Of a stretch of DNA of 64,000 nt, positions 30,001 to 33,000 are shown in pieces (the stretch's first letter is position 1; each line of letters opens with the position of its first letter). The stretch lies in NCBI RefSeq assembly GCF_054482595.1, contig NZ_CM137008.1. One strand, written 5' to 3'. A program made the position numbers.

Positions 30001-33000
30001 GGATAATAGAAATATGTTCCATCAATTTTTTAAGTTCCATTTTGTTCTCCTTAATTATGCAAGGAGTATTTGATCATGTATAAGCAATAAAAACAGCTTC
30101 AGGTAATGAGGAATATCTCAATTTTTAAACATAAAATGCGAACTATTTAGTACAAAAAGTGAACTTCTGATGATCTTTCCCTGGATTTACATTAGGTTGG
30201 TTATTTTCCATACCCACAACTATATTTTCTCTCTGAATTTAATACGTGCAAGACAATCGCAGCACTCTAACTGACTTCGATGTGATTTGATGTTCAGAAA
30301 AATCCCTCATTAGATTATTATCATGAAATACAGCCAATTATCTTTAGTTTTTATATTTCTCAATATATTCTTTTGAAAGGATTCGCGCCTTTTCAAACTC
30401 TTCAGGAGTTAATCTATTTTCCATCTTCAATTTATATTGAACACTTTTATCAAGTCCATGAGCGTATGCGGCACTGAACCAGGCATATGCCTTTTTATTA
30501 TCGAGTGGTAACTCTTTCGTGCCTACGGAATAGATTAATGCAAGATTATGTTGTGCAACAGGATCACCATGTGTGGCTGACTTTCTTAACAGTTCTATTG
30601 CTTTATATTTATTTACAGTAATCCCACCCAGTCCTTCATAGTAAAAGATACTTAGTGCTGATTGTGCTTTTATGAAACCTTGACTTGCCGATTTATCATA
30701 CCAAAAGGCGGCTTTATTATAATCCTTTTTAATAATAACGCCTTCATAATAGAGTCGCCCTAAATGATACTGAGCAACCTTATCCCCTTGCTCCGCAGCG
30801 ATACGATACCACTTATCTGCCAGATCTTTTTTATTAGTCTCATCATATAGTAAAGCAAGGTTAGTTTGAGCCGTAACTAATCCAGAATTTGCAGCTTTAT
30901 TTAACCACGCTATGGCCTTACCATAATCTCTTATCACGCCACTCCCTTTACTATATAATACTCCTAAGTTTCCCTGCGCTTCTGGAAAACCTTTTTCAGC
31001 TGCCATTTGATAACATTCAAATGCTTTTTCATAATTTTGAGACACCCCATAACCATGAGCATACATAACACCGAGGTTATACTGAGCCTCTGTCAGCCCC
31101 TGTTTTGCTGCAAGCGAGTACCAATATACTGCATCTTTATAACTCTGGATTCCTTCAGAACCACTTCGATATAACTCCGCGAGTTTAAATTGCGCAGTAG
31201 CATCTCCCTTATCAGCATCTTTTCTTATATATGTCATTTTATTGGAGGCTGCTGTGTCTTCTGTCACCCCAATTGCAACAGGAATACTCAACACTTCAAA
31301 AAAAAACATCACAACAACACACATTAATATTTTTCGGTTATTTTTTATCGGCATCTTTTTTATCATCACCTTTAAATTTATCTACCGCTTCACTAGAAGT
31401 CATGTCAGTAATATAATCTCCAAATGCATTTTCAGGCACAAAGGGTAATTTACCCAAAGTTGCACCTAATAATTACTCCGCTCCTGTATCAGCAGCAGCA
31501 TAAACACCAGATTTAAAATCCCCTCCCTTACTTAAAAATGACAATCCCATTTTCAAAGCTATTTTCTCAACAAACGTTTTTCCCGCTCCCCAAGAACCAC
31601 CTAAAGCACATAGCGCCAACTCGGATTTATCCGGCATCTTATGATCAGACATATAGTCAGTCGTAGCAACCGCACCACATGAACTAAGACTTCCAATTGC
31701 TATCTCCCCCCATGTAAGAGTCCCCCCTTCTAATGCAGCCGCACTTGCTACTGGCCCGGTAAATACTACTCCGGCAATAACAGGAGGCAGTAAAGCCCAT
31801 CCTTTTACATAATCGTCTAATGGATTATACACTCCACGCATACTTGAAAAATCATCCAACGCTTTAAATTTTTCTTCATCTGACAGGTTCGGGGCGAATC
31901 CAACATTAGCCCCCTGCATAGTGTTATAATAATTAGTTCCAAATATCATTTGCGGCGTTACATTAGCTAACCCCAACGGATCTATATGTTCAATAGGATT
32001 GAGTGGGTACTGGTAAGGATTTAATCCTCCTTCCAGCCCAATCGGGTCCTGGGTGATATACCGTCCCTGCAACGGGTCATAGTACCGGTGACGGTTGTAA
32101 TACAGCCCCGACTCCTCATCATACTGCTGTCCCGGCAGACGGTACGGCTGTTGCAGGTGCTGCGCGCTGGTTTCGCCCAGCAGGTTTCCCCACTCGTCAT
32201 ACTCCCCCTGCCACGCCGTTTCCCCTTCCGGGCTGATGAGCGCCTGCGGCAGTCCCCGGTGGTCACAGTGGTAAAGATGAAGTTTCCTCTCCGGGATGTA
32301 TTCCGCCTCCAGTTGCGCCGCCATCTGTTCCGCCGTCAGCCCGCACTGCGCAAGCCATGCCTCACTCTCCGCACTCACCGCACCCGCGCGCAGTTCCCGC
32401 TCCAGCCTTCCCAGCATCACCGCCAGCTCCGCCGGTAGCGTCACCCCCGTGTCCTCCTGCAACACCTCCGCCAGGCTCCGGTGCCGCGCCTTCGCCTGTT
32501 CGCCATTCTCTGTTTCGATTCTGATGAGTGGTGTGAAGCTCCCCGGCTGGTATACCGTCTGGATACGCGTGGTGCCGGTCTGTACCGTCGTCAGCCTGTC
32601 ACCGTCCCACCCGTACCAGGTTACCTCCGGTTTACGCGACAGCGACATCCACCCCGTCAGGTCACGCTCCCGCCGCCACACCCGTTTTCCCGTCCGGCGG
32701 CCCAGCGGGTCATAGAGGTAGCGGCTCTCCACCTGCGGCTCACCGTGCTGTATCCGCGTGTAGAACACCAGACGGTGCTGGCTGTCGTAGTGGTAGTGGT
32801 GGGTCCGCTCGTCGTGCATCCGTATCACCCCTTCCGGGATGCGGTCCGTCTTCTCCGCCAGCCTGCCGTATTCATCGTGGCGGTAGACATAGTGCGCATC
32901 TTCCGCGATGCGGTTATCCGGCCACGCCGTGAAGGTACTGTCCGGGTGCAGTTCCGGGTCCGGCAGCCGGTTTCCTGCCGGGTCCGTCGCATACGGGATA

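Follow-up and report, generated by a model that had tools for sequence, protein, structure and literature searches.

A type VI secretion Rhs toxin with a putative EC93-type ionophore tip and a candidate Sel1-repeat immunity protein, truncated in one Escherichia coli lineage

We analyzed a stretch of 64,000 nucleotides from contig NZ_CM137008.1 of NCBI RefSeq assembly GCF_054482595.1 (hereafter, the window), in which the gene for a type VI secretion system (T6SS) Rhs effector is followed by a gene for a Sel1-repeat protein. On balance, we consider it probable that the Rhs protein belongs to a family whose tip is an ionophore of the EC93 type, that the Sel1-repeat protein provides immunity to it, and that the toxin, which is truncated in the window, is inactive there. 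EC93-type ionophores were the first toxins discovered in contact-dependent inhibition (CDI). An original prediction for this locus, made from the window alone, had proposed a membrane-active toxin with a periplasmic immunity protein. Homology through intermediates, the lack of an enzymatic match, and the synteny and co-divergence of the Sel1 gene all speak for that proposal, which is supported in part, with the qualification that the window carries a truncated toxin allele. Unless marked otherwise, the features described below lie on the minus strand.

In the mechanism we propose, the Rhs protein of an intact allele would be carried on VgrG into the periplasm of a neighboring cell, and its tip would be freed at a DPLGL motif. 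A small modular N-terminal subdomain of the tip may then dock on an inner-membrane protein, and the C-terminal helical, Gly/Ala-rich domain would enter the inner membrane and dissipate the membrane potential. In place of the usual two-helix membrane protein of 70–100 residues, immunity would be provided by the product of a gene overlapping the toxin gene at its 3' end, which is predicted to be a tethered or exported Sel1 protein with its repeats in the periplasm. This protein would most likely capture the toxin at the periplasmic face of the inner membrane, either ahead of insertion or while it takes place. In the lineage of the window the toxin would probably be inactive, with the immunity gene still intact.

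The rhs gene (31473–35750; ORF list and Pfam) encodes 1425 aa in its window allele. Pfam detected DUF6531 at residues 49–126 (E 4.5e-17), 12 RHS_repeat matches and the RHS core PF03527 at residues 1158–1192 (E 3e-14), and the gene is labeled ‘RHS element core protein’ by RefSeq in strain Santai. No PAAR family was matched by Pfam in the Rhs protein, for which DUF6531 was reported, and the N-terminal sequence is no more than suggestive of one. The core closes with DPLGL (31968–31982, read from the sequence), which by analogy would be the expected site of autoproteolytic release; a DP[LF]GL motif also precedes the homologous tips of the database proteins P0004, P0006, P0008, P0009 and P0011 and of locus L021. 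The first residue of the tip is Ala (codon 31965–31967), and 164 Gly/Ala-rich codons (31476–31967) follow DPLGL in the window allele, compared with 209 residues in the native full-length tip. The switch to AT-rich composition that had been described after DPLGL was confirmed, with GC falling from ~64% to ~40% (0.57–0.67 in the Rhs core and 0.36–0.45 across the tip and the Sel1 gene), and the hydrophobic peptide strings quoted from this region are present in the tip where they had been placed.

The tip is built of two parts. Its N-terminal subdomain (residues 1–48; 31824–31967, delimited by alignment) is ~75% identical to those of P0005 and P0004, two proteins with C-terminal domains from other subclades, and loci L016 and L021 have a window-type C-terminal domain behind an unrelated N-terminal region. 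Given the differing combinations of N- and C-terminal parts among P0004, P0005, L016 and L021, the tip is modular, as has been reported for CDI entry domains, and the N-terminal subdomain is analogous in position to a CDI ‘entry’ domain. The second part, an ionophore-like helical domain, is retained in the window as tip residues 49–164 (31476–31823; profile, BLASTP and hydropathy). The hydropathy of the tip resembles that of the EC93 CdiA C-terminal toxin, CT(EC93), with one clearly hydrophobic segment (residues ~58–80) followed by amphipathic Gly/Ala-rich helices. The original description of the tip as membrane-inserting is supported in part, as the tip is not a single hydrophobic domain but a modular subdomain with this helical, ionophore-like domain behind it.

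Searches of the 164-residue tip against Pfam, NCBIfam and PDB sequences returned no match, and a PDB search with a 25-sequence family profile gave chance antibody matches only. AlphaFold2 with 25 sequences predicted an all-helical tip (mean pLDDT only 53) of three short helices and then six (residues 5–9, 13–22, 30–42, 49–81, 86–108, 114–127, 132–146, 151–172 and 181–206). Foldseek of this model against PDB found nothing better than E 1.3, and, given the low pLDDT and the lack of a Foldseek match, no fold was assigned to the tip. The absence of an enzymatic family or fold in Pfam, NCBIfam, PDB and Foldseek agrees with the expectation of a membrane-inserting rather than an enzymatic domain.

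To place the tip among known toxins, we compared it with the CDI ionophores. Toxins of the CT(EC93) family were shown by experiment to depolarize target cells (Halvorsen et al. 2024); they consist of an N-terminal entry domain and a C-terminal five-helix ionophore domain, and all CDI ionophores are said to share a GxxxGxxxG glycine zipper in helix alpha-4 (PMC11630599). We checked the numbering of that paper, in which G168/G172/G176 correspond to GNAIGTALG with the V of VENN as residue 1. The sequences of CT(EC93) and its immunity protein CdiI(EC93) were extracted from plasmid pCP127, and the comparison with the CDI ionophore groups covers group 1 (EC93) only.

A profile search of the C-terminal domain had been suggested as a check on the original prediction, and the relatives it recovered link the domain to the CT(EC93) ionophores. 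When 1.84 billion representative proteins were searched exhaustively with a profile, only 17 relatives of the tip were found. Another ~20, mostly Rhs fragments of Salmonella, Enterobacter, Yokenella and Pseudocitrobacter, came from a word-indexed profile search, and the toxin-subclade alignment found zero relatives in 100,044 species-representative genomes. The relatives occur on both Rhs and CdiA proteins: one (P0018) has a PT-VENN pre-toxin domain, and in a Serratia marcescens plasmid CdiA a homologous tip comes after VENN, with a hydrophobic protein of 82 residues encoded next. The family profile aligned with CT(EC93) over 148 columns (hhalign probability 96.5%, E 8.5e-10). A chain of BLASTP matches connects the window to P0013 (E 3e-14) and to P0009 (E 1.5e-10), P0009 to the Serratia CdiA-CT (E 1.4e-11), and the latter to EC93 (E 1e-20). 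An HMM built from CdiA-borne tips only gave 47 bits for P0009 and 16.5 bits for the window tip, compared with maxima of 9.3 and 7.8 bits, respectively, in 300 composition-matched shuffles. Based on these comparisons, we are fairly confident that the tip is a divergent member of the CT(EC93) ionophore superfamily.

The entry motif associated with AcrB in group 1, PEGQDP(A/V)RGLL, was not seen in the window tip when the alignment was read by eye, and no receptor can therefore be inferred for it. By contrast, the tips of many enterobacterial Rhs proteins, here fragments from Salmonella, Enterobacter, Yokenella and Pseudocitrobacter (P0008, P0011 and P0021–P0031), resemble CT(EC93) group 1 in both the N-terminal GFG(S/T)GFNNY.QAAGSLG... 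sequence and the ionophore domain; P0008 matched EC93 with E 6e-15 over 201 residues, and tips of the P0008 and P0021–P0031 type start with GFG(S/T)GF.NY.QA, as CT(EC93) does. These tips look like Rhs-borne counterparts of AcrB-dependent CDI ionophores.

The stop codon of the window allele was revealed to be a nonsense mutation that the first reading of the window had missed. The window has TAA (31473–31475) in place of GAA at the codon for Glu165 of the tip, as indicated by alignment with three independent contigs (L002–L004), all with GAA. With a 68-nt probe spanning the site, matches were obtained in 32 complete E. coli genomes, of which 28 have GAA and four have TAA (Santai, SM107, W619 and AHM21C2872I, the last a 100-kb record), and the codon was confirmed in the fetched loci. 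The diverged Salmonella, L016 and L021 homologues also encode Glu at this position. We accordingly take GAA to be ancestral, from its presence in 28 of the 32 genomes and from Glu in the diverged homologues; TAA as the ancestral state was rejected on the latter ground. As a side observation, the AHM21C2872I record (NZ_CP104632.1, 100,861 bp) is counted as a plasmid though it bears the chromosomal T6SS/Rhs region, and it may be a mislabeled chromosomal contig.

Downstream of the mutation, the untranslated remainder of the toxin ORF continues in frame with Rhs for 44 sense codons, encoding LLGATLGKLPFVPENAFGDYITDMTSSEAVDKFKGDDKKDADKK, to the original stop at 31338–31340 (31338–31472 in all). The closest database protein, P0001, runs 45 residues past the window stop (ELLGATLGKLPFVPENAFGDYITDMTSSEAVDKFKGDDKKDADKK). 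This C-terminal tail, LPFVPENAFGDYITD, is homologous to those of the Salmonella, L016, L021, P0010 and P0014 proteins and holds G168, G172, L174, P178, G183, D184, T187 and D188, that is, most of the invariant positions of the subclade. The stop falls in the middle of the predicted helix 151–172, which aligns with the glycine motif of EC93 alpha-4, and the truncation drops 45 residues, including half of this helix and the last helix. As these losses take away the glycine-motif half-helix, the last helix and most invariant residues, the Santai-type truncated allele is probably inactive.

We think it unlikely, by contrast, that the truncated toxin still kills, with helices 1–3 and half of helix 4 being sufficient, or that the stop is bypassed, so that the strain would be armed. 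Such activity would be in keeping with the retention of the most hydrophobic segment in the truncated allele, with the intact Sel1 gene beside it in the window, and with the lack of further decay in the four TAA genomes, which are 100% identical over 2.1 kb. Yet TAA followed by T is established as a strong terminator context in E. coli, and of the three helices for which contact with the immunity protein is predicted in CDI homologues, two were lost here, namely the glycine-motif helix and the last helix. The deletion also takes the conserved tail described above, and the module has other, independent lesions. In strain 2824 (L028), an IS1A insertion that duplicated 9 bp of its target occupies 31352–31360; this is precisely the rhs/sel1 junction, where the full-length Rhs ORF ends and the start codon of Sel1 lies. 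DSM 103246 has a frameshift in its Rhs gene.

The next gene was confirmed to encode a Sel1-repeat protein with a putative N-terminal signal anchor, as the original prediction had stated. Its ORF spans 30344–31369 from a GTG, and the RefSeq CDS (WP_001695458.1) starts at the ATG at 31354, giving a protein of 336 aa (30344–31354) with six significant Pfam Sel1 repeats (E 4e-12 to 3e-4). From this ATG onward the Sel1 gene shares 17 nt with the full-length toxin ORF, and in the diverged L021 the two genes overlap by the same length. After basic residues (KNNRK), the protein has a single N-terminal hydrophobic segment, ILMCVVVMFFFEVLSIPVAIG (31268–31330; Kyte-Doolittle 19-residue maximum 2.54), with the character of a signal anchor or signal peptide. 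The L016 orthologue has a comparable single long N-terminal hydrophobic helix, and that of L021 a short signal with a possible lipobox, LWGSC. These features suggest that the protein is exported or membrane-anchored with its repeats facing the periplasm. Sel1 orthologues are rare, with only three clusters above generic Sel1-repeat similarity. The best PDB sequence matches are unrelated Sel1 proteins, for example E. coli c5321 (4bwr), and PA5087 (5jkp) was matched at the level of the repeats (E 3.7e-13).

To seek evidence of a functional relationship between the two genes, we compared the loci that encode this toxin subclade. A Sel1-repeat gene follows the toxin at every locus recovered, i.e., at four diverged loci: the E. 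coli window, L008 from Salmonella serovar Texas (toxin and Sel1 genes both decayed), L019/L021 (an intact Rhs 3' end with Sel1), and L016 (an orphan tip with a 350-aa Sel1 protein). Identities to the window are 73, 61 and 55% for the ionophore domain and 77, 58 and 37% for Sel1, indicating stepwise co-divergence, and Sel1 tracks the C-terminal domain of the toxin rather than its N-terminal subdomain. The sister subclades have a small hydrophobic protein in this position (81 aa in L005, 85 aa in L010, 82 aa in both L011 and L013), comparable with the 79 aa of EC93 CdiI. No alternative small hydrophobic immunity ORF was found around or after the Sel1 gene in the window or in L016. Taking together the synteny, the co-divergence, the export features and the lack of such an ORF, we regard the Sel1 protein as likely to be the cognate immunity protein, with slightly less assurance than for the ancestry of the tip.

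Two further observations were made at these loci. An 82-aa ORF over the 3' end of the Sel1 gene in L008 was considered as a candidate and rejected as an AT-rich artefact that is not conserved in the window. The Logan contig SRR17210294_657 (L005:1–3402) holds an Rhs tip fragment, a 149-aa ORF, an ankyrin-repeat protein (126 aa), the orphan ionophore-like tip P0004 and the 81-aa hydrophobic ORF, the last two overlapping by ATGA; this array appears to consist of stacked toxin/immunity cassettes of different classes.

Comparison of the fetched loci showed length variation in a poly-T tract within the signal-anchor codons of the Sel1 gene (31298–31306; T9 in the window, encoding FFF). Tracts of T8, T9, T10 and T12 were observed, and alignment lengths suggest T10 in five and T12 in one of the 32 complete genomes. 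With T10 the reading frame runs into a TGA at once, and the Sel1 protein that RefSeq annotates in such genomes (NCTC10444 and DSM 103246) is without the export segment and starts at Val21 of the 336-residue protein. The variation may reflect sequencing or assembly error, decay, or slipped-strand switching. A slippage-prone tract could act as an on/off switch for immunity-protein export; combined with a change of immunity class in which Sel1 intercepts the toxin before insertion, this is a tentative proposal that we hold to be rather unlikely as a whole.

Several results weigh against an ionophore tip with a Sel1 immunity partner. On the side of the partner, all characterized immunity proteins of the EC93 family are two-helix membrane hairpins of 72–100 residues encoded directly downstream (PMC11630599), a pattern from which a Sel1 protein departs. 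In most genomes with a poly-T-frameshifted Sel1 signal, moreover, the toxin ORF seems intact (an intact Rhs CDS was confirmed in NCTC10444), which is odd for an essential immunity gene and weakens a simple view of Sel1 as indispensable. The Sel1 protein could accordingly be something else (an unrelated exported protein, an accessory that handles the toxin, or an effector), with the true immunity gene absent or elsewhere; a T6SS-associated Sel1 protein of Klebsiella was reported to be toxic when over-expressed and has been proposed as an effector (PMC12469244). We assign this a low probability. It does not account for a Sel1 gene beside the toxin subclade, and diverging in step with it, at four diverged loci, for the 17-nt overlap in two lineages, or for the lack of a conserved small hydrophobic ORF nearby (window and L016). 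An N-terminal export or anchor signal would also be ill-suited to a cytoplasmic Rhs chaperone, and Sel1-type T6SS immunity has precedent.

On the side of the tip, no significant match was obtained when the window tip was compared directly with CT(EC93) by BLASTP, and equally insignificant was the reverse test of the subclade HMM against EC93 (−0.2 bits), so the homology rests on intermediates. The strict GxxxGxxxG is absent from the window, Salmonella and L016 tips; the aligned window region, TGAEELLGATLG, has G162-x5-G168-x3-G172 (G-x5-G-x3-G). The AlphaFold2 models were poor (pLDDT 33 with a 4-sequence alignment and 53 with 25), and a five-helix bundle was not demonstrated. The likeness to CT(EC93) might then stem from Gly/Ala-rich helical composition or from a translocation module, with the tip having another activity or being a non-toxic relic; glycine zippers can serve translocation rather than killing, as described for Agrobacterium Tde1. 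This is about as improbable as a non-immunity Sel1, given that the intermediates align over their full length with E values of 1e-10 to 1e-20, far above composition-matched shuffles, that the 209-residue tip has no further domain for another activity, and that sister subclades have CdiI-like membrane immunity genes. An ionophore-type tip with Sel1 as its immunity protein remains our preferred reading.

The genomic context is that of a T6SS effector. Over the examined region the window matches strain Santai of E. coli O157:H16 with 100% identity, and the gene order on the minus strand is hcp (38177–38695, the first gene of the hcp-vgrG-rhs-sel1 arm), vgrG (35826–37967, encoding the spike protein directly upstream of rhs), rhs, the Sel1-repeat gene and an ISAs1-family (H-repeat) transposase remnant; hcp and vgrG were identified from the ORF list and RefSeq annotation. 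The remnant (29666–30040, a RefSeq pseudogene in Santai, covered by an ORF at 29552–30040) marks the distal end of the Rhs element, and yafV-ivy-fadE lie beyond it. The T6SS core genes tssB, tssC, tssE, tssF and tssG are transcribed divergently from hcp, linking rhs to hcp, vgrG and the core apparatus.

The intergenic region between hcp and tssB (38700–39390) is very AT-rich (GC 0.23–0.34) and presumably holds divergent T6SS promoters. Between tssB and tssC lies a 74-aa ORF (39927–40151, plus strand), a conserved hypothetical gene in Santai and Sakai (ECs_0232). The EC93 plasmid pCP127 (NZ_CP061330.1; L014:46413–50000 and L015:1–4105), which bears both EC93 cdi loci, also contains ISAs1 remnant-yafV-ivy-fadE-lpcA-yafJ-dpaA, a segment copied in chromosomal arrangement. 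Its junction is the one found beside the Rhs/Sel1 module in the window, although rhs and T6SS genes are missing from the plasmid copy.

To our knowledge, every EC93-type ionophore described so far is borne on a CdiA protein and paired with a small immunity protein that resides in the membrane. Neither Rhs-borne EC93-type ionophores nor a Sel1 partner of such toxins came up in our literature search, and Rhs is mentioned only in connection with Tse5 in the description of the CDI ionophores (PMC11630599). The comparisons reported here indicate that the same ionophore domain probably also travels on T6SS Rhs proteins in Enterobacteriaceae, and that one subclade appears to pair with a Sel1-repeat partner, predicted to face the periplasm, instead of a small membrane protein. 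At the level of sequence the homology and the synteny are solid, and the apparent switch of immunity class is the surprising part. Within one ionophore family, immunity may have changed from CdiI-like proteins acting in the membrane to a tethered periplasmic Sel1 protein that intercepts the toxin before insertion, jointly with export switching through the poly-T tract; we advance this combination as a doubtful one. Interception at that stage would be in keeping with a T6SS that delivers its toxin to the periplasm.

Should the Sel1 protein prove protective, an ionophore in its pre-insertion state would become accessible through a soluble protein, which could support binding and structural work of a kind that membrane hairpins make difficult. 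The system would then also be a natural example of a toxin family in which one immunity class has replaced another. Natural controls are available in the nonsense allele, the IS1 insertion and the length variation of the poly-T tract: a probably dead toxin beside live immunity, and immunity proteins with and without export. These lesions also illustrate the decay of a module with immunity kept.

Among known systems, CdiA-CT(EC93)/CdiI(EC93) is the closest in the toxin. The window tip shares with it a C-terminal helical, Gly-rich domain that is homologous via intermediates and similar in hydropathy, a bipartite layout in which a small modular N-terminal domain precedes the putative membrane-active domain, and predicted proteolytic release at a conserved motif. 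It differs in being borne on a T6SS Rhs protein after DPLGL rather than on CdiA after VENN, and in having neither a strict GxxxGxxxG nor PEGQDP(A/V)RGLL. The partner differs as well, being a Sel1-repeat protein of ~336 residues with one N-terminal anchor rather than a hairpin of 72–100 residues.

In its mode of delivery the system is like Tse5 (RhsP1)/Tsi5 of P. aeruginosa, which would be its known functional analogue and is described as an Rhs cocoon that delivers a pore-forming, depolarizing C-terminal domain by T6SS (PMC11630599). PDB sequence searches, run with the tip (to E 10) and with the family profile, matched no Tse5 chain, assuming that the deposited Tse5 chains include the tip. The immunity protein Tsi5 is a small membrane protein rather than a Sel1 protein.

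For the partner, the Tli5b-type proteins PA5086–PA5088 are cited as Sel1-like immunity proteins against a T6SS effector that attacks the membrane from the periplasm (PMC7216683). Unlike the putative ionophore of the window, their cognate toxin PldB/Tle5b is a phospholipase D enzyme, and their likeness to the window Sel1 protein is generic to Sel1 repeats. In VgrG4/Sel1E of Klebsiella pneumoniae, a Sel1-repeat neighbor has been shown experimentally to neutralize a T6SS effector, but the toxin is a VgrG C-terminal DUF2345 domain acting through reactive oxygen species, and Sel1E is without a predicted lipoprotein signal, its location not being settled (PMC7108748).

At the same chromosomal site, E. 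coli O157:H7 Sakai (ECs_0237/ECs_0238) has hcp-vgrG-rhs with a repeat-protein gene directly downstream, but its tip is different and non-hydrophobic, and there is no DNA similarity to the window tip or Sel1 gene. The Sakai locus (L027:22080–26908) encodes a YibG-like repeat protein with a (GE)n low-complexity run and no signal sequence, followed by an orphan Rhs fragment and ISAs1 copies. Sel1 genes have been reported in silico at the O157:H7 locus (PMC7216683); we considered them as the same module as that of the window and rejected this, as the Sakai tip is soluble and different and the YibG-like protein lacks a signal.

A glycine-zipper depolarizing polymorphic toxin with two unrelated immunity classes is known from Staphylococcus aureus, where EsxX is countered by ExiAB and ExiCD, and soluble ExiAB sequesters the zipper helix of EsxX (PMC12744356). 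That system belongs to a Gram-positive type VII secretion system, its sequences are unrelated to those of the window, and its soluble immunity protein acts in the cytoplasm of the producer. By analogy, ExiAB may serve as a conceptual precedent for non-membrane immunity to an ionophore.

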